Assembly (NCBI GenBank): GCA_044892525.1
Contig: CM097888.1
Location: forward strand, 90,644,001-90,708,000
Length of the DNA stretch: 64,000 nt
Source of the DNA: Schmidtea polychroa
Lineage: Eukaryota
Direction: 5' to 3'
Each line of letters begins with the position of its first letter. The first letter of the stretch is position 1. Shown here piece by piece: positions 3,172-35,908 of the stretch. Both the position numbers and the translations under genes were made by a program. Below the pieces are notes generated by a model that had not been told where the DNA came from, searched no databases, and saw only the letters and a list, made by a program, of their open reading frames with translations.

Positions 3172-4700
3172 CTATATACGTGAGTTTGGAGGGCGCTGAA
3201 CGTTCCAGGCCTCCACCCACTGTCCTTGTTTGATATCACTTGGTCGTTTCACTCGATGTTGGAAGTTTCTGATTCGGGTCATTTCTAGTTCTCCGCGATG
3301 TCGTTTATCTTTAATTATTTTTATTGTTCCCCCCGTTATGATTAGGAATGCCCCTGTTATTATTATCCCACTGATCCACATCATCTGCTTCACGCTTATA
3401 CTCTCTGGTTTTTCCTTGTTTGTTAATGTTGATATCGCTTCTGTACTTTTCTCGTTTCCTCTTTTGCCATTTCCTTTCATCATTTCCCGTATTCTTGCTA
3501 TTTCCTCGTTCATACCCTCCTTTGCCATCTTTTGTATTTTTTCCATCTCTTCCTCCGAAACATAGTTGTCCTGAGCTTCCTCACCAGTTTTCTTGTGCTT
3601 TCCTCCTTCGTTCTTTTCGTCGTGGTTTTTTCTTTTCTTTCCTCTTTTCCCCGGGTATCGTCGGCATTCTCTTTTTGATTCAATCCTCCAGATACAAACC
3701 GTGTATTCTTTCGGCGGCTGCTGCTGCGTCACATATTGATGGCATCTCTCACCTGGTCCTAATCTTGAAATACAGACTTTGTGCTCTTTTCTAGGTTGGA
3801 TCTGCGTTATTACTACTTCACCACCTTTTCCTAGGTGTACCTCTTTTCCTTTGACGTTCGTTATTCTCTTCCCGTCTCGATTTCTCACATCCCGGCTGAG
3901 CCCCCAAAAATCATGTTGGGGTCACACCTCGGCTGACCATTCTACCATGTTGGCGGGTCTAAGGGTTGATTGTCCATCTCGAATAAAAGGTGCCACCGAT
4001 TTGTCAACCTGGAGTGAAACCCCACATAACTTTCTTCCAACATAGTGCCCGTGAATCACTTCACGTTGGTACTGCACTATGCAGGCGAGACGCCAGCAAG
4101 CAGGTGAGCTTCTGCCTTAAAACTACTCCTTGCTGAGGCTTCGACTTCCCATTCACGACTGCCGATAGAAGGGCTTACGTCCATTTCCTTACACAACCAC
4201 CTATCAGGATTCGCTGAATGCAAATTGGGAAATTCTCACTAGATCTTGCGGGTTCTCTACTCAACCCACTTAATTAAAGTCTAATTATTCATGAACGAAA
4301 ACGTGTAAGACAACAAGATTTATTAATTTCAACGTTATGACACAAGGATTCAGCTGTACACTTTACTAATGTTTGTCGAAAGAAGAGAAAACATCATAAT
4401 CAACATAGATCGGATCCTTGTTCCTCATCCTGACCGCCACTGGGGTTTTATTGTTTCTCCCATTCAGTGTCGGCGAATAATTCGTCGAGGTTGAAAAACT
4501 CGGAAGCGTTCTCTTCCCACCTTGATTTCGGTATGCTTCTTGTATTCTTACTTCTGTTATTGGTTCTGTGTCCTCATTTATCAGTACTAATTTCTGATAC
4601 GCTCTAGACATGCATCTTCCTAGTATGCACTTTTCCTTTAAGTCCCATTCTTCCTTTAAATCCCACTGCTGCTCTTGTGCTTGCTTTCTCTTTTCTTGTT
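3172..4700 (-). pseudogene. Single-pass membrane protein ORF split by a 639-bp insertion and 5'-truncated by deletion
   Basis: Removing 3885-4523 plus one GAAATC copy rejoins ...IQEAYRN|RDGKRITNVKG in frame. There is a hydrophobic segment MWISGIIITGAFLIITGG near the C-terminus. Confidence 0.8.
3885..4523 (-). mobile_element. Inserted copy of LTR 3' end + PBS (strong-stop-like cDNA) with 6-bp target duplication
   Basis: 3889-4523 matches 16530-17164 (635 bp, one mismatch seen, 4140 vs 16781). gatttc is present at both 3879-3884 and 4524-4529. Confidence 0.88.
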
Positions 4701-7700
4701 TTTGCAATTCCTGCATAATTTTTGATAAATTTGCGATAGTATCCGCATAATCCTAGAAATTCCTGAACTTGGGTGACAGTTTTCGGTGCTGGACATGTTT
4801 TTATTTTCTCAATGTTTCTTGGATCTGGCTCCTTTCCTTTAGCTGACACTATGTGTCCTAAAAACGTGACTTTTTCCTTTGCCCAATCGCATTTTGATGG
4901 TTTGAGTTTGAGTTTCCACTGTCTTAATCTAATAAATACGTTTCGGATATCTTCTAGATGTTGTTCAAATGTCGCTGAATAGATTAGTAAATCATCAATA
5001 TATACCATACATTGTTTGATTCCATGGGTGACAAAGTTCATACACCGTTGAAATGATGCTGGTGCGTTAGTCAGTCCAAATGGCATTTTCCTGAATTGAT
5101 ATAGATCTCGTCCCAACGTGAAAGCTGTTTTCTCTTTGTCCTCATCTTTGACTTTAATCTGCCAGTATCCACTTTTTAGATCTAAAGAAGTAAAATATGC
5201 TGCCCCTTGCAACATCAATAACATCTCATTGATGTCTGGCAATGGATAGGTATCTCTCTTGGTCACTGCGTTTAACTTCCGATAATCGATACAGAATCGT
5301 TGGGTGCCATCTTTCTTTTTCACCATGACCACTGGGAATTGCCAGGGTGAGCAACTTGGTTCGATTACTTTTGCGTCTAGCATCTTTTGTACTTCTGTTT
5401 CGGCTATTTCTTTCTGCATTTCTGCTAGCTTGTATGGTCTCAATGCAATTGGGGTTTCGTCTATGAGTGGTATTGCATGTAAGGTAACATCACATGTACC
5501 CAAGTCTAAATCTGAGATGGCGAATATATCTTTATATTCTACCAACAATCGGTGCAATTTTTTCTTTTCGTCATTCGTCAACAACATACTATCTATTGTC
5601 CATAATTCATCATCTTTGATCATCTCGTTGGTCACTTTCGGTAATTCTATGTCCATCATTGGGGTCAATCTTCCCAATTTTTCGTTCTCATAAATGATTT
5701 TGTCTTCCTCTTCGAAATTCGTGATGTTGAGCGGTATCACTCCTTCTTGGTTTATTGTGATTATTTCTCTTGCGAGTGGTAATTCTCGTCGCTTTTCAAA
5801 TGACTTGCTTGGTTCAAAGATAACTTCTCCTTCCATACCCGTATCCACTTTTATCTGACAAATCATCTGTGATTTTGCTGGTACTATTATTTTTTCTGGA
5901 CATCTGATGACTGAATTCATTTTGCATATTCTACCGGTTTTGTCTTTTAAGCACATGGTTGTTAAGTCAATTACGACTTCCTTTAACAATTCTGGCATCA
6001 AATCCGTTCCGATTATGCATGGTACGCTAAGTTTTGGTATTACTGCCAAATACGTTTCAATTTCGTTGTCCTGGTATCTCAATGTAGTCCACCATCTTCC
6101 GACCACGTCCACTGTTTCTTTACTACATGCTATGATGTGAATTGTTGTTGATTCGATATCCTTCCAGTGTTTACTGGGGATTTGATTAATCGCTATCGCT
6201 GATACATTAGCTCCGGTGTCTATCATAGCATTGGTTTCTTTACCATTGATTTGAATCATAACTGTTACTGCTGGACCTCCAGGTAAACTCATCGCTGCTA
6301 TTGTTCTTACGTCATCTGCTTGATCTACACTTTTGGTACGTCGTGTTGGCATATAATGCATACCGGGTTGACTCGGTAATTGCGGATACATATTTTGTGT
6401 CATGGTCAAAGCTGTTTGTGGTCCCACGATATCCGGTGGTATATAGCTTCCATTGGCGATCGAGGTGTTTGTCTTTTCCTTTTCCCAATATGGTGCCGTT
6501 TCCATTGGTTTTTCGTTTGGGTTTCTGTTTGGATAAAGACATTTATCGTTCCCGTTATCATCGTCGTCACTATCGCTGTTAGATGATTGGCTTCTAAATC
6601 GGTCCAAGAATTTTGGCTTATTCTTTTTCAATTGTCGTCTTGTTGCTTCATCGTACATTACTTTCCGGAATCGTCTGCCTACTTCCTCGTCGGTTCCTTT
6701 AATCTTTGTTAATATTTTAATCAATCGCTTTATCCGATGAATGTCTTTTGAGTGGCCATGTAATACCATGGTCTTAGCTAAAAATGGTAAGAAACCTACT
6801 ATCATTTTCCAATTAACTTTCTTTTCCCGCTTGTATATATCGAAACAAGCTAACATTTGTGTTAGTATTACTCTGACTATCTGAATTATGAGTATGATCC
6901 CTAATATCCCGGCCATCATTTGTCCAAAAACTAAGAATCTTCCCCACATTGCTTTCATCATGTTTGACGTAGCTTGTTGAAAATGGTCTGGCGATAATAG
7001 CAGCTCGTAATTCGGGCCTGATTGATAGTTTGTGCCCCCAGTTATTGTTACCATATTAGACAAAATGGATTCTCGTCTGGCTGGGAAGAGTACGTTAAGT
7101 CGTGCTGTTTCTAGATCTTCTGGGGAATACATACCACCGTTTGACACGTCTATAGGTTTGAAATCCAGCTCTGTGGCGAGTTCTATTAATCCAAATTTCT
7201 TGGGCTCCTCGGATATGGTTTTTCCCGGTAACATCATCCATTTCCCATCGGGCCTTTCATATAAAGGTCCGTATGCATTAGAACAGTTAAAGAGATTTGG
7301 GTAGAAACCCACTGGATTCATAATTCTAGTGACTGGTTGGACGAATCGATTTTGTCCTTTATAACGGATTTCTAATTCATTTGCACATCTCTTTTCGGGT
7401 AGTATGGATTTTTCTGGCATTCGTGCATACGTCTTGGTACACTGGTATGTGTACATCACTTCTCCTACCATTCTACCAAAGTGTCCATCTGGTAATGGGA
7501 GTGATGGCATCGTGTTATCTGGGTGCGTTATCGCAATAGCTAGCTTTGTTTTCAATATTTCTTTATTCAATGAACAATCGTTTTGTATTAGATCGTAATA
7601 TACTTTTTGCAAGGTCGTTTGTCCGCGATGAAATAGAAAATCCATTTTATTATTTGCATATAAGTATAGTTTTACGTCCTCCGTTGCTATCTTTCCCACT

Positions 7701-10700
7701 GCTCTATCGATTATTTGTCTCGACATATAGATACCTGCGTAGTTGGTTTTATATACTATACTGTCACATTTGGTGGTTTCTTTCTCTTTGATAAATCTCA
7801 TACCTAGATCTGGATCGTCTGTGATTAATGCTGTTGGTGTCTTCTGCGTTGAAAGTCTCTTTTCTCTGGGAGATGGTGGCATTGGTTTTCCATTTCGCAT
7901 TCTCACTCTGTCGTTTCCATCCTCGTCGTTCTCGTTCTCATATATTTCTCCTTTTACTTCATTGAACAAAGCACTTTTTAACAGTTGGAGTCGGCATTTT
8001 TGGGTATTAGCTTCATAGATTATAGTTGATACTCCTGTCCTGCATACGTTTTCTGTAGCTCTACACGTTGGGTTGGTCTTCATTTGGTAATTATTTGCGT
8101 CAAATTGCGCTTCGTATTCTTTTAATTCGACCGTGTAAGACTCGATCACTACAACTCCCGATATTACCTCGCCTCGGATCGTATACGTACCTCCGTTACA
8201 TGACCCATCTGATGATTTTACTTTTCCGGATACGTAAACACTTTCGGTTTTAATCATTCCAGTTTGTCCGTGAATTGTCACTCCGTTATGCATTTTTAGC
8301 GCTCCGGTTCTAAATAGCTCTTTACAATCCTCTCGTTGTATTGATACGATTTCTTTATCCAGACCGGGTAGTATAAGAGTCGAATACGAATATTGTCCAC
8401 AGTAATATGCGAGTACCTTTTTTGATACTACGCATTCCCTTGCTTGCGTTCTGATGAAATCTGATTCTTGATATACATGGTAAGTAACTTTTGTTCTCAC
8501 GATGTCCAATTTGTTGGGTGAGGCTTGTCTGCATTCTTCTATGTCTCTCAATGAGTATTTATCTCTCATTATCATGTTATCACAATCGTAGATGGTGAAA
8601 CCTGTTGCTCCACTTGTGCACAACATCCATATCATCATAGTCATCATTAACGAATTTATTGATGCTTTTCTGCTTGCGGGATCTTTCATCGGTAGTTCCC
8701 ATTCTAGTTCATTTAACAGTTTTTTCAATCTAACTTGCATCGACCTTTCTTGCTCATTTTTCCGTGGCGCTTGTATCAGTCTTTTCCATCCTCCTGCACG
8801 AATAATGTGTGGTTCAATAGTATTCTCTATGATTGAAACGGTCATTTCTACATGATTTGCAAACTGTTTATTTGGTATTTTCCTCGCAGCTAGTCCCATC
8901 AAATTATACATCAAATAAGTGATTACCACTAGGTGATGCTCGTCATCATTTGCATTTGTCGTGAGCTGCTCAATCACTCTCTTTGTTTCGTCCCAATCCG
9001 TTTTGGTGGTTTTCGTTTTCTCTTTGATTAACTTTGGGATTATCCCCGAAATGGTGTGCCATAATTGTCTAGCTTCCGTACTGGCTACTTTCCGTTGCCA
9101 CAGACGTCTAAGTTGTGGGTTTGTTATTATTAACATATCTTTTAACAATTCTCGTATCCATTTTTCTCCTCTTTCGATCGTTGGTTGGGCTTCCTTTAGA
9201 TCCCATACTATTTTATCCAATTTTTCTAATCGAACTTGCCCTTGTTCTTGCTTTAATTGTTCTTTGGTTTTGAACTCAGACTTTTCTCCTTGTTTCTTGG
9301 GTCTTCCTTTTGCCCGTTTTTCCATCATCGTTCCTGCTTCTCTGGTATTTTCGTAATTCGGATTTCTTTCGTTATCCGTTCTGGGTAATGAGCTATCGTT
9401 ATTTCTTAGCCACTCATTCCATTCGTCTATTATTTTGTCGGTTTGACTTTCTGGTGTTACTTTCGTTGGTTCTCTTTGCTTCTGGAATTGTTCATCCGTT
9501 TCGGTTTCCGTAGTATTGTCGATGATTTCTTCGATGTTCAGTTTCGTTGGTTGTTGATAACTCGTTGATGGCTGGTTATTAGTCCACATTTCGGCTCCTG
9601 TCGGCCATCTCACTAATAGCGGTGATCTTTCTCCTGGTTCATCGTCACTATCTTCCAGGATTATCTCTTCAACTTCTTCAGTTTCATTAGATTTACTTGG
9701 TGCTTTGTTCGGACTTGGAGTACTCAAACTGCCTTTTGTTGGTTTAATAATTTTACTTTTCCTTTTTAACGGTTTTCCCAACGTTTCTGCCATTGTTAAT
9801 ACATTTGTCTCTTCCAATCTCATGGGGGTTATCCCGACGTCTGCATTATCGTCTAGTGATTTTCCGAACAGTTGCAGATGGAATGGAGTTTCATATGCTA
9901 ATTTCTTTTTTAATTCTCTAATTTTTGTTGTTGGATGCACCTCTAGTTCCTCGATGCTCTTGTCTGGATACTTGATTCGGATGTGATACCTCTCCTGGGT
10001 GTCTTGTGCCCATTCCTGATTTCTCCATTTTCGAATAATTTGTTCTAGCTGTTCTGGATACCATTCATTATATTGCCGGTATTCCTCTATTGCCTTTGCC
10101 ATTCCTCTCAGATTGTGGATGTCCTCTGATGTCTTTAAGATGATGTTAGCCAACGCTACTACTTGGCGTCTTTGATTTTTCGCTCCCATTGCTAAGATAT
10201 CGCCTAATTGTTTATATCTTTCTTTCTCTTCTCGTTCTCTTGCTTCCGTCGCTTCCTCGCCGTCCATATCAGCATATTCACGTTCCTTTTTCCTCATTGC
10301 ATGAATATGTCTCGCTTCATTTTCGCTTTCTGATGTGACATCCGTCTCGCCTTCGTCATCTGATGTCTGTTCCCTTGCTTCCTCTTCATATTTTGGAGGT
10401 TCCTCTTCTTCTTCCTCCGATTCACTTTCTGTCTCACCAATGTCTGTTTCCACGAAGGTTCCTTTCCGGATTTCCCATTCCTTACTTTCTGCATTCCACA
10501 CTCTTTCCCATGGGGTTCGTCTGCAGGATCTGGTGCTTAATTTCGTGATTTTTCCTTGTAGTTCTTTTTCTTTTAACCATTGTTGGTGGATTTTAATTAT
10601 TTCCGTAGATTTTTGATATAACGTTTTCATCCGGTCTCGTATTTCTTTTTGATAGGTTACATCTCTTGTTCGAAATTCATCCATTGGTACTATCCTGATT

Positions 10701-13450
10701 ATCTGGTGATTGTCCCACATACCCATTTCGCTTAACGAGGTGTCGTCCTCCGCTCGTAATATTATCTTATCGTACATCATGACTACATCATCCACCATAC
10801 CATCACTACTTTCGCTACGTACCTTTTCCGTTATCTCTTGGTTTATTTTTGATACCAAGTCATCCACTGTACTCTGATTGCTCATTTTTATTCGTCGTTT
10901 TTCTTCGTTCGGTAACCATATGGTTATTTCCAACCTCTGTGGCTGGGTTTCTTTTAACCTTCCATATTTGTGGATCAAATTTATGGTTCTCCAATCACTC
11001 ATTCGGAGCATTTCTGTATCTCGCAACCGGCTCATTAGTTCGTACATGGCTGGGGCTCGTCTGGTGATGAGTAAATCCCAGTTGTCTTCTACTTGTTCTT
11101 GAATTTGTTTGATCAGCTTATCCAGGTTTCGTCTCAGAGTACATTGTTTTATTTGTTCTAATTTCAATTTGATATTAAAATCATATTCGGCCTTGGCATC
11201 TTTAGCCCAATCGTAAAGGTTGGCTGGTTGTTTTTCTTTATGCAACTTCAGTATTTGCGTTTCCCCTGGCCATATTAGTGCATCTACTAAGTGCATATCT
11301 GGTTTGATCTGTTCTCCTTGGTATTGATACAGATATTCTTTCTTTCTCGAACTTCCCAAATGCTCTCGTATCCAATCGAAAAGTTCGTCGGTGACTGTAT
11401 TTTTTATCCACATTCTTTCAAGTCCTCTACTCGTTCCGATTTTTATTACATACCGCGTGGTATCGGCCTGCTTCATTTTTTCCATATAATTTTTTATAAT
11501 TGATTTTTCCTCGTTTGGTATTAAATCTTTCTCGTTTCTTTCCAATTTCATCACTTTTTGCACGAATCGCCTGAATGGTATTACGTCAATGAACTCTTGG
11601 TTCCTCACTACTACTGGGAGTATTTCCGCTACTTGTTTTATCGCTTCCTCCTTCCCTTTTCTCAACTTTATTTCGATATCCTCGTCTTCACTTTCGCTGG
11701 TTATCTCGCTTTCGCCTTCTTCCTCTTTGATTTCCCCTTTTGGAGGTTCGCTTATTTCATTCAGCTGTAGTATTTCTCCACCCAAACTACTTACATAGTC
11801 TTCTTCCTCGTCTGACGATGCTACATCTTTTGTCCTTTTCATCATATTGATTTGCAAGTTTCTCATCCTTGGTACTCTCTTTAGTTTCTTTCTTTCGAAT
11901 ATCGTTGTTTCTTCTGATTCTAATTCCTGTAGCATTTGGTGGTTTAGTTGACTGGTTTGTTCCTTGCTCTTGTTATTTTCATCTTCTGTCTCGGCTTTCG
12001 CTTTATTATGTTCTTTTTCGATTTTATCTTTTATCTTTTTCCAGAATATTTTCTGAATTCTCTGGTTTCCTTTTAAAATCGTGGTTGAATTCTCTGTTTT
12101 CATTTCCGTTGTTATTTCTTTTACCTTTTCTGGTTCAGTCATGGGTACTACCCTTGGGCTTTTCCCGTAATTGTAGCAATACTGGCTCTTCATGTCTTTT
12201 ACTAACTTCATCATATTTATTCGCAATGGTTGTTCTTGTCGTTGTTGGTTGCGTTCTTGTTTTATCCTCTCTTCCTCGGCCTGTAGCCTTTGCCATTCTT
12301 GTACATGTTGATGCACTTCATAATTGTTGAGATTTTCGGTACTCCTCATCATACGTATATTCTGGGTTTGTTGTGGTGCTGATTCTTGTCTTGGTCTCAT
12401 CATTTGTTGCATCATCTGTTTCATCTGCGAAATTTCCTGCATAACGTTCATTTGTTTTCCTTCGTTAGGGTTACTTTGTCGTTGCGGATTCGCTATATAA
12501 TTATTATTTCGCTGTGGTGGTCGTTGTTGTTGGCCCCTTTCTCGGCAATCTCTGGAGATGTGACCTGGCTGACCACAGTCAAAACAGCCTCGCAATTGGC
12601 ATACATTTTCGGTATGTCCACGCCGTCCGCAACGATTACAATTTGAATTTCTATAACAATCTCTGTCCCAGTGTCCTGGTTTACCGCATGTTCGGCACTG
12701 CTTGTTATCGTTCATATTTCGTCGATTATTGAAATTGTTCTCATTATTCGGGTTGTTACGATTACCATTATTCCCGTTTGATCGTCCTTGTGGTGGTTTG
12801 AAAATTTGGTGCGCTCCTGGTATAAATTGATTCATTTTCGGTTCTTGATTGTTGTTATCTCCGTTATCCGCTTTCGCTATTGCTGTCGCTATCCTTCCCT
12901 CCTCTTGCATAATATTCATTTGAGCTGGAAGGTGGAGCTCGCATCTTGTAGCCCAATCTATGGCTTCCTCTAATGTTTTGCACATTTGACAACCTACTGA
13001 GGCTCTTACTTCTTCTCGGCGTAATCCCTCTATGAAATAACCGATCAGATTTTCTTCGGGTAATTTTCCATTCATTGCTTTCTTCGCTAATCTCCGCAAT
13101 TCACTGGCATATAATGTTATCGATTCGTTTGCTCTTTGTTTCCTATTTGCTAGTTCGCCCAACGCCTGGTTGATTGGCTTACTGGCTCCGAAGGTTTTCT
13201 TCAGGAATGTTTTAATATCTTCCCACTTTTCTAATTTCGTGTCTCTCTCTTTAGCTTCTAAATATACCTCTAATGCACTATCGCACAAAAACAACGGCAT
13301 CCTTTTACTAATGGCTTCGGGTGTCCATCCACACACAGTGATATAAACTTCAAAATTAGTTATGAACGATGCTAGCTTGTTTGCGTTTCCGTTGAAAGGT
13401 TCTCCTCTGAACTTCTCTTTATACTCGTCGGTTTTTACGACATTCGTCAT
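4604..13450 (-). CDS. 2948-aa polyprotein Gag-Ubl x3-Bcl2-like-glycoprotein-PR-RT (RT truncated near 4700; last ~32 aa are junction read-through)
   Basis: Single ORF. CCHC x3 at ~12545-12700, DTGA at 6209-6220, YIDD at 4991-5002. RT similarity stops at KNYAGIAK. Confidence 0.93.
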   Translation of the reverse strand: MTNVVKTDEYKEKFRGEPFNGNANKLASFITNFEVYITVCGWTPEAISKRMPLFLCDSALEVYLEAKERDTKLEKWEDIKTFLKKTFGASKPINQALGELANRKQRANESITLYASELRRLAKKAMNGKLPEENLIGYFIEGLRREEVRASVGCQMCKTLEEAIDWATRCELHLPAQMNIMQEEGRIATAIAKADNGDNNNQEPKMNQFIPGAHQIFKPPQGRSNGNNGNRNNPNNENNFNNRRNMNDNKQCRTCGKPGHWDRDCYRNSNCNRCGRRGHTENVCQLRGCFDCGQPGHISRDCRERGQQQRPPQRNNNYIANPQRQSNPNEGKQMNVMQEISQMKQMMQQMMRPRQESAPQQTQNIRMMRSTENLNNYEVHQHVQEWQRLQAEEERIKQERNQQRQEQPLRINMMKLVKDMKSQYCYNYGKSPRVVPMTEPEKVKEITTEMKTENSTTILKGNQRIQKIFWKKIKDKIEKEHNKAKAETEDENNKSKEQTSQLNHQMLQELESEETTIFERKKLKRVPRMRNLQINMMKRTKDVASSDEEEDYVSSLGGEILQLNEISEPPKGEIKEEEGESEITSESEDEDIEIKLRKGKEEAIKQVAEILPVVVRNQEFIDVIPFRRFVQKVMKLERNEKDLIPNEEKSIIKNYMEKMKQADTTRYVIKIGTSRGLERMWIKNTVTDELFDWIREHLGSSRKKEYLYQYQGEQIKPDMHLVDALIWPGETQILKLHKEKQPANLYDWAKDAKAEYDFNIKLKLEQIKQCTLRRNLDKLIKQIQEQVEDNWDLLITRRAPAMYELMSRLRDTEMLRMSDWRTINLIHKYGRLKETQPQRLEITIWLPNEEKRRIKMSNQSTVDDLVSKINQEITEKVRSESSDGMVDDVVMMYDKIILRAEDDTSLSEMGMWDNHQIIRIVPMDEFRTRDVTYQKEIRDRMKTLYQKSTEIIKIHQQWLKEKELQGKITKLSTRSCRRTPWERVWNAESKEWEIRKGTFVETDIGETESESEEEEEEPPKYEEEAREQTSDDEGETDVTSESENEARHIHAMRKKEREYADMDGEEATEAREREEKERYKQLGDILAMGAKNQRRQVVALANIILKTSEDIHNLRGMAKAIEEYRQYNEWYPEQLEQIIRKWRNQEWAQDTQERYHIRIKYPDKSIEELEVHPTTKIRELKKKLAYETPFHLQLFGKSLDDNADVGITPMRLEETNVLTMAETLGKPLKRKSKIIKPTKGSLSTPSPNKAPSKSNETEEVEEIILEDSDDEPGERSPLLVRWPTGAEMWTNNQPSTSYQQPTKLNIEEIIDNTTETETDEQFQKQREPTKVTPESQTDKIIDEWNEWLRNNDSSLPRTDNERNPNYENTREAGTMMEKRAKGRPKKQGEKSEFKTKEQLKQEQGQVRLEKLDKIVWDLKEAQPTIERGEKWIRELLKDMLIITNPQLRRLWQRKVASTEARQLWHTISGIIPKLIKEKTKTTKTDWDETKRVIEQLTTNANDDEHHLVVITYLMYNLMGLAARKIPNKQFANHVEMTVSIIENTIEPHIIRAGGWKRLIQAPRKNEQERSMQVRLKKLLNELEWELPMKDPASRKASINSLMMTMMIWMLCTSGATGFTIYDCDNMIMRDKYSLRDIEECRQASPNKLDIVRTKVTYHVYQESDFIRTQARECVVSKKVLAYYCGQYSYSTLILPGLDKEIVSIQREDCKELFRTGALKMHNGVTIHGQTGMIKTESVYVSGKVKSSDGSCNGGTYTIRGEVISGVVVIESYTVELKEYEAQFDANNYQMKTNPTCRATENVCRTGVSTIIYEANTQKCRLQLLKSALFNEVKGEIYENENDEDGNDRVRMRNGKPMPPSPREKRLSTQKTPTALITDDPDLGMRFIKEKETTKCDSIVYKTNYAGIYMSRQIIDRAVGKIATEDVKLYLYANNKMDFLFHRGQTTLQKVYYDLIQNDCSLNKEILKTKLAIAITHPDNTMPSLPLPDGHFGRMVGEVMYTYQCTKTYARMPEKSILPEKRCANELEIRYKGQNRFVQPVTRIMNPVGFYPNLFNCSNAYGPLYERPDGKWMMLPGKTISEEPKKFGLIELATELDFKPIDVSNGGMYSPEDLETARLNVLFPARRESILSNMVTITGGTNYQSGPNYELLLSPDHFQQATSNMMKAMWGRFLVFGQMMAGILGIILIIQIVRVILTQMLACFDIYKREKKVNWKMIVGFLPFLAKTMVLHGHSKDIHRIKRLIKILTKIKGTDEEVGRRFRKVMYDEATRRQLKKNKPKFLDRFRSQSSNSDSDDDDNGNDKCLYPNRNPNEKPMETAPYWEKEKTNTSIANGSYIPPDIVGPQTALTMTQNMYPQLPSQPGMHYMPTRRTKSVDQADDVRTIAAMSLPGGPAVTVMIQINGKETNAMIDTGANVSAIAINQIPSKHWKDIESTTIHIIACSKETVDVVGRWWTTLRYQDNEIETYLAVIPKLSVPCIIGTDLMPELLKEVVIDLTTMCLKDKTGRICKMNSVIRCPEKIIVPAKSQMICQIKVDTGMEGEVIFEPSKSFEKRRELPLAREIITINQEGVIPLNITNFEEEDKIIYENEKLGRLTPMMDIELPKVTNEMIKDDELWTIDSMLLTNDEKKKLHRLLVEYKDIFAISDLDLGTCDVTLHAIPLIDETPIALRPYKLAEMQKEIAETEVQKMLDAKVIEPSCSPWQFPVVMVKKKDGTQRFCIDYRKLNAVTKRDTYPLPDINEMLLMLQGAAYFTSLDLKSGYWQIKVKDEDKEKTAFTLGRDLYQFRKMPFGLTNAPASFQRCMNFVTHGIKQCMVYIDDLLIYSATFEQHLEDIRNVFIRLRQWKLKLKPSKCDWAKEKVTFLGHIVSAKGKEPDPRNIEKIKTCPAPKTVTQVQEFLGLCGYYRKFIKNYAGIAKTRKEKASTRAAVGFKGRMGLKGKVHTRKMHV
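4700..6290 (-). other. Aspartic protease and reverse transcriptase
   Basis: AMIDTGANVS; PWQFPVVMVKKKDG, RFCIDYRKLN, LDLKSGYWQI, MPFGLTNAPASFQR, VYIDDLLIYS. Confidence 0.95.
6760..8660 (-). other. Chuvirus-like envelope glycoprotein with internal signal peptide and C-terminal TM
   Basis: Hydrophobic MMTMMIWMLCTSGATG then FTIYDC...SL...EC, YCG.YS, C..L..TG, DGSC.GG.Y and WGRF..FG..MAGILG TM. This cysteine/motif spacing is typical of chuviral G proteins as I recall them. Confidence 0.8.
8770..9200 (-). other. Bcl-2-like helical domain
   Basis: Ends in a BH2-like motif IENTIEPHIIRAGGWKRL (compare L..WI...GGW..F). The BH1 region is divergent (no NWGR). Confidence 0.6.
9785..11460 (-). other. Three dispersed ubiquitin-like (beta-grasp) domains in the polyprotein
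   Basis: Three ~75-85-aa blocks (~11460-11240, ~10935-10685, ~9990-9785) with a Ubl pattern (alternating hydrophobic strands, TV/IxxLxxKI helix, L.y/f.G..L.D...L). Pattern recognition only. Confidence 0.6.
12540..13450 (-). other. Gag capsid + three CCHC zinc knuckles
   Basis: CRTCGKPGHWDRDC, CNRCGRRGHTENVC and CFDCGQPGHISRDC, preceded by a retrotransposon-Gag-like region (QRANESITLYASELRRLAKKA). Confidence 0.9.
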
Positions 13451-14716
13451 GATTGGTGTTCTAGGTTCGTCTGTTTCTTTTAAATTGTCTAACGATGTGA
13501 CTAAACTTTGGGCTGATAACTCCTCGGTTGACGTTGCTAAACTATTAGTGATATCGGACAGACTTTCTCTACTTCGAGATCGACTAGGGGTATATCCGAG
13601 ATTTTCTTGGTCAAATATGGGTACTTGATTGGTTCTTCTGGATCCTTGTGATATTCCTCTTTGATGTTTAATGGATCGTCCTCTTTTGAGTTGTTGTAAT
13701 TCGTCTCCTGAAAATAATACGTCTCCTGGCTTACTAGAAGATCTAAGATTGGGTTTATCCGTGATTCCTTTCTTACGCTTCTTGGTAATTAGCGGCTATT
13801 GAATTGGACGCGTTCGGTTCTGATTGTGTTTCCTTCGATAAATATTCTGTATGAATCTGCTACTGAGATCTTCTTCCGTTCTGGAGTCTTCCGGTTGCTG
13901 TGTCTCTCGGTGCGGGTTCTGAATGGATTTATCCTTGGTTGATTGTCGATTTCTTCGAATTCCTTTTGTGCAGGTTCTGGATTGTCTTGGTTGGCTGGAT
14001 TGGCTTGATATCTAAAATGAAAAAATGATCTCGTGTTGCATTTGCTTACACGACTTCATCATTCTTTCTACAACATTCAAAAACAGACGCCTTTTAGGTT
14101 TCTGTTTGTGCTTCCCCTATCTTTTTGTGAAATCCTTTCTGCGGGTTATAATATCCCATCAGCCCGTATTTTCCGTCGATTTTAAATTATCTATCTGGGG
14201 TAGTAACAATTATCTATAAAGTCGTAGTAATTATCTATTCGTTATCAATTATAGTAAAAATAGGTCGTTGTCAGTCTCTGCTTATTACCCCCCTTCGTTT
14301 TCTTATTCCTTTGCGCTGTTGTCGCTGTTTTACTTTTCGTATTTACTATTATCCCACTCGGTTCTACTCTGGAACCGGTACAAATACATTTTCCCGGTTT
14401 ACCCCAAAAAAAATTCCGTAGAGTTTCTCTACTTCACTGGGATCCCTTTAATTAGTTAGTTACTTTCCTCTTTACTCATTATCATCATTTCATCTATTCT
14501 TTATTTTCTATTATCTCTTTAATTCGTTTCCTTCTTCCCTTTCCTTTTTCATTATAATCTTATTTTCTTTTCCACGAGCTCGTTTATTTCCTCTCTAAAC
14601 TCGAATTTTCAAAATTACATTCAATTTGTTCTAGCTAGCTTTAATATTCCATATCACTAGTAATTTAAATATTATCTCATTGTAGCTTAACTGCTATCTC
14701 TCGCTTTTCTAGGCCT

Positions 14717-15123
14717 TTACGACTGGCTGGCACTATTCAACAGCTCAATCTTCCTCCTTCCTGATCGGTTGGACTTTTCACAACTCGACCTTACGACTGG
14801 CTGGCACTATTCAACAGCTCAATCTTCTTCCTTCTGATCGGTTGGACTATTCAACAACTCGATCTTACGACTGGCTGGCACTATTCAACAGCTCAATCTT
14901 CCTCCTTCCTGATCGGTTGGACTTTTCACAACTCGACCTTACGACTGGCTGGCACTATTCAACAGCTCAATCTTCTTCCTTCTGATCGGTTGGACTATTC
15001 AACAACTCGATCTTACGACTGGCTGGCACTATTCAACAGCTCAATCTTCCTCCTTCCTGATCGGTTGGACTTTTCACAACTCGACCTTACGACTGGCTGG
15101 CACTATTCAACAGCTCAATCTTC
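14717..15123. repeat. 74-bp tandem array, 5.5 units, alternating A/B variants
   Basis: ttacgactggctggcactattcaacagctcaatcttc recurs at 14717, 14791, 14865, 14939, 15013 and 15087. Confidence 0.97.
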
Positions 15124-15495
15124 AATATTCCTCGCTCTGCATGCTTCTATTTCTCTTTTCTTCTTTTACTCTAGTTTACCATTTTCTCTGTCTACTTTTA
15201 ATTTGTCGACTTAATCTTTACCGCTTGGGAGTGTTTCCCCTTTCCCCCCTTGCTCAAAACGCACGACGATCGCGATGATCCATTTCTACCTTGGCATGGT
15301 GATCAGTCATGTCGCAAAAACTTCTCATCATATGCGATGGTACCCCGCCCTACGCTTCTTACTTGGGTTGATCAGTTATCCCCTCCCAACGGGTTCTTGC
15401 AATAAGACGTACCGCTCGAAGGTGGCTCGGTTTGTACCCCTGCAGTCTATATTGGGACTAATTCCACGTTATTCAACCCTCTCTTCATTTGATTC

Positions 15496-15496
<1 letters not shown>

Positions 15497-15532
<36 letters not shown>
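15497..15532. repeat. A36 homopolymer (U36 in element sense), flanked by attcc/ggaat
   Basis: Directly visible in the sequence. Confidence 0.9.
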
Positions 15533-15534
<2 letters not shown>

Positions 15535-15726
15535 AATAAAACAAAACAAACACGCAAATATTCATTCGTCATGCAAATTTTATTAGTCCTAATCATCAAA
15601 ACTTTTTAAAGACGAATTTATTTATCATAAACATAAAGATTGAATCATTAACAGTACGTGTTACTTCAACAATTTCATGCATTCTTGTTCAAACATCGTA
15701 TACTTGCCGTTACATCGCCGGCCGTT

Positions 15727-16212
15727 TCATTCGCCATAATAGACCATATGGGTCTCTTTTATTTCATATTTGCACATCGTGCATCTTTTTAGGTCTTTTA
15801 CACACTCTTCACAGTGACTGAGGTGTCCACACGGCAAGAATAATACGCGAATAGGACGGAGTTTGCAGGCTATACAAGTTCGTAATTGGTTAACTTTTTC
15901 CTGTATTTTTTGTTCGATTGCATCTGGTATTGTATTTAGTGAGTCTTTTAGACGCTGATAATCTAGATTTAATGTTGGGTGGTTCAATCTCTCTTGATAC
16001 CACTGATATACGGTTTCGGGGTTTATTTTTCCATCTGGGCGACTTAGGCCTGTGGCTAATATCATATGATTAGGTACGACTGGTGTTTGTCCGATTGCTT
16101 GCAGTAATATCGCGTTGATTTTTTCTCTTTTATGCGTCAGTGTTGTTAGGGAGTCGTTTTCTATATCGATAAACTTGAGCAGTTGTTGCATTTGGTTCGC
16201 GAATTCTGTCAT
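15727..16212 (-). CDS. C-terminal C3HC4 RING protein (IAP/MDM2-type RING), no BIR domain seen
   Basis: CIAC...IRVLFLPCGHLSHCEEC...LKRCTMCKYEI at the extreme C-terminus. First ORF after the PBS. Confidence 0.85.
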   Translation of the reverse strand: MTEFANQMQQLLKFIDIENDSLTTLTHKREKINAILLQAIGQTPVVPNHMILATGLSRPDGKINPETVYQWYQERLNHPTLNLDYQRLKDSLNTIPDAIEQKIQEKVNQLRTCIACKLRPIRVLFLPCGHLSHCEECVKDLKRCTMCKYEIKETHMVYYGE

Positions 16213-16529
16213 AGCTGTTGGAAAAGTAATGTTTTAATAATATGTAGTAAATTAATAGTTAATTCGTTAATTGGTTTCTTTAACCATTGTTAATTATTTA
16301 ATTTGACTACTTTATCTCCTTTATTTATATATATCCTTAATTTTTCTATTATCTACATTTTGATTTTCTCTACTTAGTTCCTAATATAATTTAATAATCA
16401 ATAGTCACTTTGCATTCGTCAAGCAATGGTCGGTTGAAAATAGAAAATCGATGTGATAAATCCCTTTAATTTTGTATGAAACTCCCGGTGAATTTCGCAT
16501 TCGTTAATAGAAATTTCGATCGACTGTAG

Positions 16530-16547
16530 ATCCCGGCTGAGCCCCCA
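16530..16547 (-). promoter_or_regulatory. Primer-binding site complementary to tRNA-Pro 3' end
   Basis: TGGGGGCTCAGCCGGGAT vs canonical Pro PBS TGGGGGCTCGTCCGGGAT (16/18), located 7 nt after the LTR-terminal AACA. Confidence 0.88.
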
Positions 16548-17088
16548 AAAATCATGTTGGGGTCACACCTCGGCTGACCATTCTACCATGTTGGCGGGTC
16601 TAAGGGTTGATTGTCCATCTCGAATAAAAGGTGCCACCGATTTGTCAACCTGGAGTGAAACCCCACATAACTTTCTTCCAACATAGTGCCCGTGAATCAC
16701 TTCACGTTGGTACTGCACTATGCAGGCGAGACGCCAGCAAGCAGGTGAGCTTCTGCCTTAAAACTACTCCTTGCTGAGGCCTCGACTTCCCATTCACGAC
16801 TGCCGATAGAAGGGCTTACGTCCATTTCCTTACACAACCACCTATCAGGATTCGCTGAATGCAAATTGGGAAATTCTCACTAGATCTTGCGGGTTCTCTA
16901 CTCAACCCACTTAATTAAAGTCTAATTATTCATGAACGAAAACGTGTAAGACAACAAGATTTATTAATTTCAACGTTATGACACAAGGATTCAGCTGTAC
17001 ACTTTACTAATGTTTGTCGAAAGAAGAGAAAACATCATAATCAACATAGATCGGATCCTTGTTCCTCATCCTGACCGCCACTGGGGTT

Positions 17089-17877
17089 TTATTGTTTCTC
17101 CCATTCAGTGTCGGCGAATAATTCGTCGAGGTTGAAAAACTCGGAAGCGTTCTCTTCCCACCTTACGCCAGCGGCTGATATGATTCGCGCTGAGGGTCCC
17201 GTTGTTAGGTCGATGGACACGTGAGAGTTGCCACCGTTGGTTGAGTCCTCTATTGATGGGATGTTTGGCTTTGCAGTAGCGCGCTCGCGCTGTCTCTTCT
17301 TGCGCTCTGCACGAGAGAGTTGTTTGCGCTTGGGTTTGCTTGAAGATGCCACTTGCAGACGGGTGACTGATACAGATGGACTAGCAGTGGGGGGCTTACT
17401 GGTACCCGTGATGACAACATCTGGACGCTTGGGGGACCATTCGGTTTCGACGCAGTCTCGGCACGGTCTCTTGAACGGTGGAGATGGATTCGAGGAAAGG
17501 TTGTGATGAGGCGGAAAGATGTCATCGGCCTCTCGGATGGGAATCTGCACGATTTTTCGGGTTGTAGCCGCCTGCACGTAAACCTTATGCAGTGCCTCGG
17601 ATTGTTCTCTGATTAGACTTCTTTGGGCACGGCTCTCAGATATTAGCGCGTCCCGGCAATGCTCGCTACGATCGAGCTTCTTTTGGATCTCTTTCATCCG
17701 AGCGGGACTAAACCATGTCCCTTCCAGCTCGTCTATCTTCCTCTTGTAACGTCCAATCTGAGTTTGTAGGTCCTTTATCACCGTATTTTTATCCGCGCAC
17801 GAGAAGCACGGCCGTAATGCTGATTTAGTGGTTGGTAGCATGCTTGCTATAAATAATACTAATGAAATGGGGAACAT
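17089..17877 (-). CDS. LTR-encoded 262-aa protein of unknown function (CxxC, coiled coil, basic arm, acidic tail)
   Basis: Intact ORF clearly paralogous to 39165-39923 (LRPC.SCADKN, EGTWFSP..MKE, EHCRD.L..ESR.QR, QSEALHKVY). Confidence 0.85.
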   Translation of the reverse strand: MFPISLVLFIASMLPTTKSALRPCFSCADKNTVIKDLQTQIGRYKRKIDELEGTWFSPARMKEIQKKLDRSEHCRDALISESRAQRSLIREQSEALHKVYVQAATTRKIVQIPIREADDIFPPHHNLSSNPSPPFKRPCRDCVETEWSPKRPDVVITGTSKPPTASPSVSVTRLQVASSSKPKRKQLSRAERKKRQRERATAKPNIPSIEDSTNGGNSHVSIDLTTGPSARIISAAGVRWEENASEFFNLDELFADTEWEKQ

Positions 17878-17959
17878 ACGATTTTAGAATAAATTAGATA
17901 CGACCCGCGTCCATTCGTGGATACTTGACCGTCGAAAAGAAGGAAAACTTATTCTACAA

Positions 17960-19545
17960 TCCGGTTTTACTACGGATCTTAGTTGTTAAAACAGTTTATT
18001 TAACCAAATGCCATCGGTTTGACGCATGTTATGAACTTTGACTATCTATTGATCTAACTGTATGCATGAGGGACGTAATAATTGATAGGGTGTAAATATA
18101 ATATTGGTGAAACAATATAATAATGCTTTAGTAGAGGGACATTATAGTATGCGACCAAACCTTGCTATATGTTATCTATTTTAATTTATTAAAAACAAAT
18201 TACTATCGCTCTCAACATATTTTTGATTCGAAATTTGTTATTGGAAGTGCACTTTTAATTCGGTAGTGAATGTGATTATCTATGTTGTCTACCATTGGTC
18301 TGAAAATATGTGATGAGTTTACATCAGCCATTACTTTAACACCCTCATGGAAAATCCCATCGGTCATAACATATCCAAATTTACGGATACTGCTGTCGAC
18401 TGGTTGATTACATTATCGACCTATTGTGAATGTCACGTGTCGCGACTACTATGTATGCTAGTCTGATATTCTGTGCTCTCACCGCATGGATTCGTGTATG
18501 GCTACTATCTTATCTCACTCACTTGGTGTATGCCATTTTCACGGTGATTTTATCGATCCTGCTGTCGTATGATTTTCTCTGCACAGTGATTTATTTGAGT
18601 TATGATTTATGCTACCGCCAGTTCTCATCGCGGAATTTTACCCTTATCAACTTGTGTGAATGATCACCATCGTTTGGAAATTTATTGGATCTTTTCAGTG
18701 ATCGTCGAGGGAATAATTCTACCAAATACTGGAGCATATTACTACTCTCGTCATTCTACTCGGATTTTCCTATTCAGATGTAATGCCGTCTCGATGAAAC
18801 CTGTCCTTTTCTCTCAGGTTCAATAATTTGGATATATACAGTGACGACCTGGCTCTTATTGTAGAAATAAATGTTATTAATTAAATTTGGTGATATTTTA
18901 CCTGTTTATAATTTTTGAAATAACTAAGTCCATAAAAACTTTCTGATTATAATACTAGAGAGGTTTTCGTAGAATCTCGCATTTTATAGTTTCGAGTTAG
19001 TTAAAGTTTTTAGAATACTTTCGTAACCTGACATACAATCTGGACAGGTTAGATGACATTGGGTCTATGATAATGGAATTTCATACGAATTTAGTTCTAC
19101 TGAGTCCGGCAAATAGACGTTGTCGCAATTAATTTGATAAAACCATGTTTCCAGATGAAGCGTACTATGAGATGTTGTTATTTTTGACGAAGTTCACTAA
19201 ATCGTGGTCTGGATCTCTTTTTTCAATAGGGGTAAGACTTACGAAAAACGACTTGACGAAAGAAGAATGCGACGCCCTCAATCACTGTGCAAATCCTTGA
19301 AAATCCCTTCATTCGTATGACTATCTTTGTGAAATCATTGTCTACCGGTTATTTTTTATCCATACCCCATTGTGATAGTTTAGTCGCATCTTCAGCGATA
19401 GGACCCGTGAAGAAGCCTTCACATTCCGGCCCAATCTAGCTGCGCGATTGAAATACTCCATGTCCACCGGCTGAGCTCCCGAAGGCACCTCATACCATGA
19501 CATGGAGTATCTCAACTCCACGTTACTCGTTAAATGAAAATTCAT
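17960..19545 (-). pseudogene. Possible decayed upstream ORF within the LTR
   Basis: Coding-like stretches interrupted by stops and frameshifts; no family recognised. A similar slot exists at ~40450-41800. Confidence 0.3.
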
Positions 19546-31600: not shown

Positions 31601-31980
31601 GTGCGTCCACGGCAATCGACGAGTAGTTCGTTAGCGCTTAAAAAATCAGATCCTAATATGGGGATAATAACCTCTGCTATATAAAATTTCCACTCAAATA
31701 ATTGGTCGGACAGAAATGGCAACGAGAAAGCAATTGTCTTTGAACCTAAAGTCTCAACAACACTACCGTTTGCGGCCTTCAAAGAAATATCGACAGTGTT
31801 GAGGTCTGGAAGGTACTCTTTAGGTAAGATCGACAAGCTGGAACCAGTGTCGACAAGGAATTTTAGTCTGTTGGAAGGAGACGACAATATATTAAAAGCG
31901 TTTGACTCTGCTTCTATTAAAAATAAATCTGATTTTGATGAAATTTTGCCTCCCACCTCTGCCGCTAGAAGTGGTGGCAT
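28615..31980 (-). CDS. Pol: protease, RT, RNase H, integrase
   Basis: FLVDTGSS; PWSSPLHLVPKK, YIDD; TDASNVAIGA, DRELL, TDHKPL; HHPG...CIGC, HIDLVGP, ITDRGSQF, IERFH. Confidence 0.96.
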   Translation of the reverse strand: MPPLLAAEVGGKISSKSDLFLIEAESNAFNILSSPSNRLKFLVDTGSSLSILPKEYLPDLNTVDISLKAANGSVVETLGSKTIAFSLPFLSDQLFEWKFYIAEVIIPILGSDFLSANELLVDCRGRTLRINNQLNCSTIPSNIFEDPQRIGTDDINTTPSKTVITIEHPKIAVDIINRCFNTPISDVSKPLYCHTIDTTSSLPVRCKIRPLSNEKLEFVRSEFTNLLHEGTIRRSKSPWSSPLHLVPKKDGTFRPCGDYRNLNAITVHDSYSMPLVSDILHRLSKAKIFSTIDLVKAYHQIPVRESDIEKTAVITPIGLFEYVHMPFGLRNSAQTFQRYIDQVLMDLPFAVPYIDDILIGSPDLETHITHLTRTLTALRQYNLKVNVDKCTFFQHETRFLGHLISADGIRPPPDRLDTIAKFPLPKTVSQLRSFLGTINYCHRFIPGVSDILSPLSGLVSKPKKSLVSWSDTTLSAFENAKSALSKIQTLHFPNADLPWSLTTDASNVAIGAVLHQLHNDISEPLEFFSKKLSSAQRKYSAFDRELLGIYLSIKHFKHLLEGRPFVIYTDHKPLTYLFGMKDPSPRQQRQISYISEFSCEIRHIAGKENVIADCLSRSTNAILHDPIFPVQCLRDNPPSAKDLAAFGDKLEIVDGVHFDSSLSGVLRPILHDSLRKLAFHSIHDLHHPGLSATFNLLHSHVVWPAMRHDIKLWVSQCIGCQQHKITRHTKPQMIHYPTGNRFEILHIDLVGPLPSDRGFSYLLTMIDRKTRWFEVIPLKNISAEIVANSILQHWISRYGVPKSIITDRGSQFESQLFQQLTEKLGIQHLRSTAYHPQTNGMIERFHRTLKTSLGILSSRLNWTKALPFVLLGWRNTPSRTTGTTPAQLLFGSSTSLPNELVDFDNAPTFEELDMARDHFLSIDSNPQFSYASSYTPYVPKSFKDATHVYLRNITDSGLKPRYSGPYKLIDIKDNNAHIVINGVTQNINLCRLKPAFMISDDVDEDKLHSDLEKVSVEPISTTSNENLSVEPATDSNEIARTMITNYQRDENLATENTHSATTNPLNLRSIVSKPDKQRTAKNVKHSDKIWVRQIGEDISKPPRLARVYSNENLTHLMLKFT

Positions 31981-31992
31981 TATAAGTTTTTT
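31950..31992 (-). promoter_or_regulatory. Predicted -1 ribosomal frameshift signal (A AAA AAC + pseudoknot)
   Basis: The heptamer is in Gag phase and -1 gives the Pol frame. After a 6-nt spacer come TGCC/GGCA and CCACTTCT/AGAGGTGG stems. Confidence 0.75.
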
Positions 31993-34721: not shown

Positions 34722-35908
34722 GTCCGATTATACAATTTCAATAAGCTGTTATTAATACGATCAGGATAAGTATATTATTTCAAAATCAAAATCCAAATAT
34801 AGCGATCAAGATTGAAAACGAATTATAATTCTCAAAAAACAACTACAATTGTAATATTTTAAAACACCCAGTTTATTCATTTAACTAAAACAAAAGAGAT
34901 TTAAATCAATTGTGTATAAATTTTAGAAAAGTAATTAAAACTGGAACAACTGAATTGGCAGTAATTAATATAGAAATAATTTTCTAGGTAAGCAATCAAA
35001 TGTAGGAAAGCGAAAATTATTACTAGAATTTCATGAAAGATTGCGGTATTAAAATGAAGTAAAATAAGAACAGACTAAATAACTGGTTTAGATTTATTAA
35101 TTTCTTCTTTTATATCTAATTCATTGATAGGGAGCGACCAATAGTTGACATCGATATAATCCTCCAAAGCATAATCAATACCCAAATTTGCCGAGTATTG
35201 ATTGGAATTGAAAGAATTGGTCGGCGACATCGAAAAGATTTCCATAACTCGTTGACCACTTTTGACAGTATTCGTTTTTCAATGAACCTTCAGGATTGAC
35301 AGTAAATATCCGTTTCGGATCTATTCCGACAGCTTGGTAAGCAATGACGTCGTTGATACTGTTACCGAAACCGGCATACAGAGGATGGACACAATCGGAA
35401 AAAAGTGATCGAACATCATTTAGACATTGGATTTTGAAATATTCCGGTTTCTTTTCAATGACTTCTCGATGCAATGATTGGAAAAGCGATGTTGGCGAAA
35501 GAAGAATCGGGTCTTCTGGAAGTTTATCGGAAAACTCCTGGACGATATCCTGGAGAAACGTTCGAGTAATTCCTGCTTGTCCGACAGCTCGTGCGGATAA
35601 ATAAATGAATCGATAGTTGTTTTGAAAGATTTTGTTTTACAGTTTCACTACTCCAGCTTGCGTCCAATCACGGCCTGGTATTGGTAGAACATGGCATCGA
35701 ATTTTCTTTACTCGTCTGAGATTGATCAATAGAGCCTGATTGATAAGTAGAAGTATTAGCTGATCGCACGAATTTTGATTGACTATAATTGTGCTCTGAT
35801 TGGTCCTTATTCGTTGGTGACCGCGCATTTATATATATAATATAATATAATATAATATAGTATAATAGGTATATAGATATTGTGAAGGCCGTGTAACGGC
35901 TCACTACA
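34566..35908 (-). repeat. 5' LTR (1343 bp)
   Basis: Direct repeat of 27103-28445, followed after 1 nt by the PBS. Confidence 0.95.
35175..35703 (-). pseudogene. Captured lipin fragment, copy in the 5' LTR
   Basis: Same sequence as 27712-28240. Confidence 0.88.

Follow-up and report, generated by a model that had tools for sequence, protein, structure and literature searches.

A strong-stop-like LTR fragment inserted in a giant flatworm LTR element, probably by reverse transcriptase template switching

Introduction

Retroviral plus-strand strong-stop DNA extends into the primer tRNA. According to PMC8599865, which covers HIV-1, MLV, and HTLV-1 in vitro and in cells, synthesis stops first before m1A58, after 18 nt, and on read-through a second time one base before position 54, at 22 nt. 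Strong-stop ends made by such read-through fail in normal transfer unless the genome matches them, as described in the available text of PMC8599865 and PMC11251516. Here, we describe an insert in window G000:C4:90644001-90708000, the whole 64,000-nucleotide stretch of Schmidtea polychroa DNA that was analyzed, to which all positions below without a contig label refer. Its end resembles the retroviral one in both respects, with an 18-nt boundary before A58 and a length of 22 nt in total. However, the flatworm case is read from one genomic junction, and its primer is tRNA-Pro, whereas the retroviral second stop was demonstrated on tRNA-Lys3 (m5Um54).

Retroviral template switching yields deletions, insertions, and duplications (PMC3187697). 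As in the nonhomologous switches presented there, short and imperfect junction homology is found at this locus, with an insertion, a duplication, and a deletion in one genome. Unlike in retroviral switching, the strong-stop DNA end itself apparently served as the template, and the event is seen in a natural element copy of 26 kb. Capture of Ty1 cDNA at double-strand breaks, as reported in PMC11372161, likewise features an LTR-end fragment, extra bases found only in cDNA, and no integrase. There, however, the break was induced and repaired by nonhomologous end joining, while the target here is an element of the same lineage with homology behind the duplication. Integrase-independent insertion of Tf1, in the account of PMC11042837, shares the single-stranded PBS end and an aberrant and truncated product, frequently placed at elements already present. 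Tf1, however, either pairs its PBS with PBS-like targets or forms tandems at LTRs, and the present target has no PBS homology.

The element carrying the insert resembles Burro/GYPSM1, planarian giant gypsy-like elements of ~30 kb with a ~4,700-codon polyprotein and an env-like part between gag and pol, as outlined in PMC6431247. The ankyrin repeats and MATH/TRAF gene given there also occur in the element described here, although its TRAF/MATH domain is encoded by a separate downstream ORF, unlike in the available description of Burro/GYPSM1.

Results

The insert sits in a minus-strand LTR element whose 5' LTR (16555..20399, minus strand; 3845 bp, TG...CA) lies in the window and whose 3' LTR (window positions -5741 to -1897, minus strand) lies outside it. 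The element ends carry a 4-bp target site duplication (TSD), as do the ends of all family elements checked (9/9). Its two LTRs differ at a single one of 3845 positions, in agreement with the first-pass annotation of this DNA, which had called the event recent. The normal PBS (16530..16547, minus strand) is followed by the normal leader. A polyprotein frame of 3063 codons remains (4604..13795, minus strand), with Pfam matches to gag, zinc knuckles, a viral fusion domain, protease, and RT. The C-terminal tail of this polyprotein (3172..3878, minus strand) is cut off in the present copy and has no Pfam match; it is this tail, and not a host gene, that the first-pass annotation had taken for an interrupted host ORF.

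Sibling elements are ~30 kb long and contain a single frame of ~4,730 codons. The sibling part corresponding to the segment deleted here matches RNase H, integrase, and ankyrin in Pfam; in the present copy, a downstream ORF matches RING/MATH (TRAF-like). The layout thus comprises ~30 kb, a giant gag-env-PR-RT-RH-IN frame, ankyrin, and MATH/TRAF, and the element may be called Burro-like by architecture, a name taken from this layout rather than from alignment with named Burro elements. No BIR or BCL2-like domain was matched by Pfam in the frames scanned, which cover part of the downstream ORFs. Accessory frames in the window encode a TRAF-like RING/MATH protein (1178-2614) and, within the leader, a RING finger (15727-16233). 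A 264-codon frame inside the LTR (17089-17883) has no Pfam match, and Rfam gave no match over 13800-20500. The leader also contains a 74-bp tandem repeat (14717-15123) and a long A run (about 15497-15532). A purine run is absent before the 3' LTR (window about -1896 to -1870), so that the plus-strand primer site looks atypical.

The insert spans 3885-4523 (639 nt, minus strand) of this young element. Read along the element strand, it consists of the last 610 nt of the 3845-nt LTR (3914..4523, minus strand), the 7-nt spacer TGATTTT between LTR end and PBS (3907..3913, minus strand), the 18-nt PBS complementary to tRNA-Pro positions 76-59 (3889..3906, minus strand), and the four bases GTGA (3885..3888, minus strand), which are foreign to both the target and the normal leader. 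The first-pass annotation had recognized this anatomy, giving the LTR part as 609 nt, one short. Positions 3889-4523 are identical to the normal 5' region of the element (16530-17164) at 634 of 635 bases, and this identity ends exactly at PBS base 18, consistent with the plus-strand strong-stop type of end proposed earlier. The LTR part carries one private substitution, a T at 4140, where all other LTR ends with the anchor have C (89/89). The insert thus finishes with the LTR 3' end, the spacer, and exactly 18 tRNA-complementary bases, as plus-strand strong-stop DNA does, but it does not start at the LTR 5' end; with only the last 610 of 3845 nt, it is a partial copy. The same 7-nt spacer (3907-3913, 16548-16554) is common to several otherwise unrelated LTR families and is longer than the 0 to 3 nt usual between LTR end and PBS.

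The insert is flanked by an upstream (4524..4529, minus strand) and a downstream (3879..3884, minus strand) copy of GAAATC. Three sibling loci align across the position without an insert, and the two inspected at sequence level have GAAATC once, which makes the 6 bp a genuine duplication, as the first-pass annotation held. Its further observation that excision restores the frame is uninformative, since any insert with a duplication reverts in this way; the natural siblings were compared instead. The ends of the insert are AAGGT and GTGA rather than TG...CA, and the 6-bp duplication differs from the 4-bp TSD of the family. Both features show that integrase did not place the insert, and the earlier reading of a nonintegrase insertion stands.

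An exact genome-wide search, which misses copies with a mutated PBS or spacer, returned 83 copies of the LTR end plus PBS. All run on into the leader (82) except the insert. In addition, 97 sites with PBS plus NTGA were classified, 81 by direct inspection and 15 through overlap with the leader pattern, the remaining one being the insert; the other 96 are all ordinary leaders. The further inserts of this kind that the first-pass annotation had suggested looking for were therefore found neither among the 82 other copies nor among these 96 sites. PBS sites of other families gave 445 matches, 30 of which were inspected. The insert is confirmed as real as assembled, and it is the single case found.

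The primer tRNA bears on the origin of GTGA. The tRNA-Pro(TGG) gene reads G53 T54 T55 C56 A57 A58, followed by 18 nt matching the PBS. Since positions 58-55 are A58 A57 C56 T55, the predicted continuation past the PBS is TTGA. GTGA deviates from it only opposite position 58, and the match stops before position 54, which would add A where the genome has G. The earlier prediction that host tRNA-Pro positions 55-57 specify TGA is thus borne out. The length of GTGA also fits the published second stop, but the match comprises three bases only (tRNA 57-55), a 1 in 64 chance. The first-pass annotation placed this stop near Psi55; PMC8599865 instead ascribes the 22-nt end to the modified U54 (m5Um54). 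The modification m1A58 is present on human tRNA-Pro (PMC11251516). On a rough weighing, GTGA likely derives from the tRNA by read-through of a putative m1A58. The earlier claim of such read-through is upheld to this extent, with the fit of TGA on one side and, on the other, the three-base match, a G that is the rarest base, and the alternative template discussed below.

A pattern search for the tRNA T-arm and PBS gave 1582 genome matches, and four matches in L046 were identified by ARAGORN as tRNA-Pro(TGG). A tRNA gene variant at position 58 was rejected as the source of G: the pattern search returned no tRNA gene with a base other than A at 58, and A is present in all of the first 100 of the 1582 tRNA-like matches listed. 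At G000:C1:130.90-130.95 Mb (L046-L056), tRNA-Pro(TGG) genes recur every 475 bp in a long tandem array.

The four bases could also have arisen by the same template-switch route without the tRNA, either templated from an 18-nt end by a leader 13-mer or added without template. This reading bears on no more than the four bases and partly coincides with the other models. The 13-mer (16450..16462, plus strand; 68-80 nt past the normal PBS) is an inverted match at 12 of 13 positions to the PBS-GTGA-GAAATC junction (GAT-GTGA-GAAATC). It would supply G directly along with a 5-nt overlap with the target, and 65 of the 82 family loci share its 13-nt probe region unchanged. Over the 300 nt next to the PBS, a range picked after the match had been seen, 3 of 256 four-mers score as well as GTGA, as do 20 of 3000 random trials. 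Element-wide, the match is not significant (91/256 four-mers, 80/400 random trials), and templating would require priming on 3 bp plus a terminal mismatch. For untemplated addition, PMC11042837 reports that Tf1 reverse transcriptase puts nontemplated bases on most cDNA ends. Either way, it would be by chance that TGA fits the tRNA and that the match ends before 54, and we regard a non-tRNA origin as rather unlikely. The two sources can be combined: a read-through end with G would pair 7/7 with the 13-mer site, which could explain the capture of this rare base. Other exact templates for GTGA in the element were rejected, with matches reaching 7-8 nt only, and a GTGA just before the 3' LTR was judged a chance match. 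A 14-mer inside the LTR (19467-19480) shows, by eye, 13/14 identity to the PBS core; it falls in LTR block 834-1010, which is ~91% identical between subfamilies amid unalignable surroundings.

The PBS border was also compared across copies. In 68 close copies (of 82, with 14 diverged ones left out), nine show a change no more than two bases from the end of the PBS, and this border accounts for seven of the eight indel events found over the first 100 bases of the leader. In most cases, the nearest neighbor of a changed copy is without the change. A sister family with a leader starting TTGA has T in 54, C in 5, A in 3, and G in 1 of 63 copies at the first base, in a set that includes every non-T match, leaves out 15 T matches, and was filtered on fixed positions 2-4 and 13-25. 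The single G occurs in L176. By hand count, the first 100 of the 202 sister junctions listed have T57, A34, C9, and G0, with an A class that is probably in large part one lineage. Changes thus concentrate at the base opposite tRNA position 58, which is what read-through predicts. Among sister-family copies, G is the least frequent change at this base, in line with the low C signal given for the m1A-A context in PMC4787781.

The junction opposite the PBS shows homology. The first 15 nt of the insert (4509..4523, minus strand) match the 15 nt just 3' of the duplication (3864..3878, minus strand; 14/15 purines on the element strand), the presumed re-entry site, at 12 of 15 positions in register, ten of them consecutive. 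This is the best value among 3831 LTR positions. Random pairs of site and truncation reach such homology in 0.16% of 200,000 trials (registers -20 to +20), and 4 of 22,249 internal positions, the target among them, qualify as such sites. Since ~4 distinct LTR places give 12/15 to the target at some register, the homology tells where the jump landed and not which polymerase made it. The only strand able to use it is a nascent one of minus polarity that re-enters immediately behind the point it left, and such a return copies GAAATC twice.

The insert is accompanied by a second private lesion, a deletion of ~4.2 kb with short microhomology at its junction (4696..4702, minus strand), ~170 nt from the insert. 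The genome contains this junction a single time; the full spacing of 25.9-26.2 kb (by subtraction) is retained in 12 other top-scoring copies. The LTR haplotype nearest the insert is present at 6 of 93 LTR-end loci, representing this element and two others. The exact search would have detected an insert with this end at any genomic site. Although the family covers an estimated ~0.3% of 781 Mb, the sole PBS-ended insert lies in a member of it.

Discussion

The boundary at PBS base 18 exists in a replication intermediate and not in chromosomal DNA, which points to such an intermediate as the source of the insert. The 12/15 homology on the nascent-strand side, in register and of minus polarity, the nearby private deletion, and the same-lineage target favor template switching before integration. 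We consider it probable that the insert was made by reverse transcriptase switching templates during minus-strand synthesis, inside the particle. What the sequences show directly is how the insert is built, that its site is empty in siblings, the match to the tRNA, the homology, and the private nature of both lesions; the order of events that we infer is as follows. Plus-strand synthesis would have run through the LTR and the spacer into primer tRNA-Pro for 18 nt, probably gone past m1A58 by misincorporation, and halted before position 54, with an end mismatched to the family leader (CTAC). The minus strand, having copied GAAATC, would then have jumped to the free 3' end of the strong-stop DNA and copied 639 nt, a premature, nonhomologous second-strand transfer in which the leader 13-mer possibly helped. 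Re-entry into the RNA would have occurred where the new 3' end matched the purine-rich 15-mer, with GAAATC copied a second time. Another jump ~170 nt further on may have removed the 4.2 kb, and the finished DNA would have integrated normally, in keeping with the 4-bp TSD and the near-identical LTRs. Against this sequence of events, it is seen once only, and without recourse to the leader 13-mer there is no homology at the PBS-side junction.

A second explanation is capture after integration, in which host repair patched strong-stop cDNA into a break or stalled fork and the 6 bp came from a staggered break or from recopying. The duplication is not of the integrase type, and a break could account for the neighboring deletion as well. 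Moreover, in the Ty1 data of PMC11372161, 40 of 56 inserts of the 3' LTR at breaks in yeast carry cDNA-only extra nucleotides, and Tf1 insertion without integrase prefers existing elements according to PMC11042837. However, plain end joining could not exploit the homology, given its location 3' of the duplication. The Tf1 route makes use of PBS-like sequence, and the target has none. In addition, the only PBS-ended insert of the genome is located in a same-lineage element rather than in a target unrelated to its donor, as capture at a chromosomal break would have it. We therefore consider capture improbable, and the earlier reading of it, with an ordinary target site duplication, is not favored. 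Host synthesis-dependent repair could nevertheless give the same geometry.

Somewhat less probable still is a two-primer model, in which minus-strand strong-stop DNA linked to its tRNA was mistransferred to the 12/15 site, copied into the tRNA, and joined to a second minus strand. It uses the same homology, makes both insert ends natural stops, and predicts that the insert begins at the transcription start, which would be 17164. AATAAA motifs 71 and 199 nt beyond this position would give a plausible R. Yet 17164 falls within the 264-codon LTR frame, the TATA-like motifs lie at 18838, 18988, and 20033 with none near it, and more steps are required.

An assembly artefact is very improbable. Among the contigs listed for four public sequencing runs, none bridges either junction or has T at 4140, and these contigs, which drop rare variants, carry only the empty-site, normal-LTR, and undeleted forms of this high-copy repeat region. 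However, no exact repeat is present at either junction, four bases are foreign to both sides, the 6 bp are duplicated without a mismatch, and the outer ends of the element and their TSD are consistent.

Template switching at a strong-stop end would be built from steps that are all known from retrovirus and yeast experiments and would belong to a known class of error, of which a natural genome here likely holds an example; no natural genomic case was found in the literature searched, with most older subscription papers outside the search. The affected copy, without integrase, is a dead end. Taken as a snapshot from nature, it suggests that the 18-nt and 22-nt stops of retroviruses are also used, on tRNA-Pro, by a giant element of flatworm type, and that the element polymerase can take a strong-stop end as acceptor in the middle of its genome.

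The ragged PBS border of the whole family is the more general lead and is testable in any genome with many young LTR copies. Tentatively, the base after the PBS could represent, across hundreds of copies, an in vivo spectrum of misincorporation at m1A58, with the insert as a frozen 22-nt read-through end; sister families, like lentiviruses, may have come to tolerate read-through by extending their complementarity to the tRNA as far as position 55. PMC8599865 describes the same extension of tRNA complementarity for HIV. If true, LTR elements record the modifications of their primer tRNAs, and modification stops would be readable from assemblies alone.

Several minor observations were made on related elements. 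Other families primed by tRNA-Pro (L087-L116, L176-L189, L198-L234) have leaders beginning with xTGA, with complementarity to position 55 and a variable first base. The leaders of L230 (G000:C4:19918233-19919633) and L199 start with TTGA while those of their relatives start with other bases, possibly as read-through ends fixed at normal strand transfer. At G000:C4:12787492-12813594, a tandem LTR-internal-LTR-internal-LTR array with an 11.1-kb unit and large internal deletions has a 4-bp TSD at its outer ends. PBS-bearing LTR ends are paired 26 kb apart in the same direction at G000:C1:156821342/156847349 and C2:177681385/177707597, each followed by the leader; these pairs are probably tandem elements with a common LTR. 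Finally, the window contains a second element (27103-35908), which has direct repeats of 1343 bp, identical to each other, and two long frames on the minus strand.
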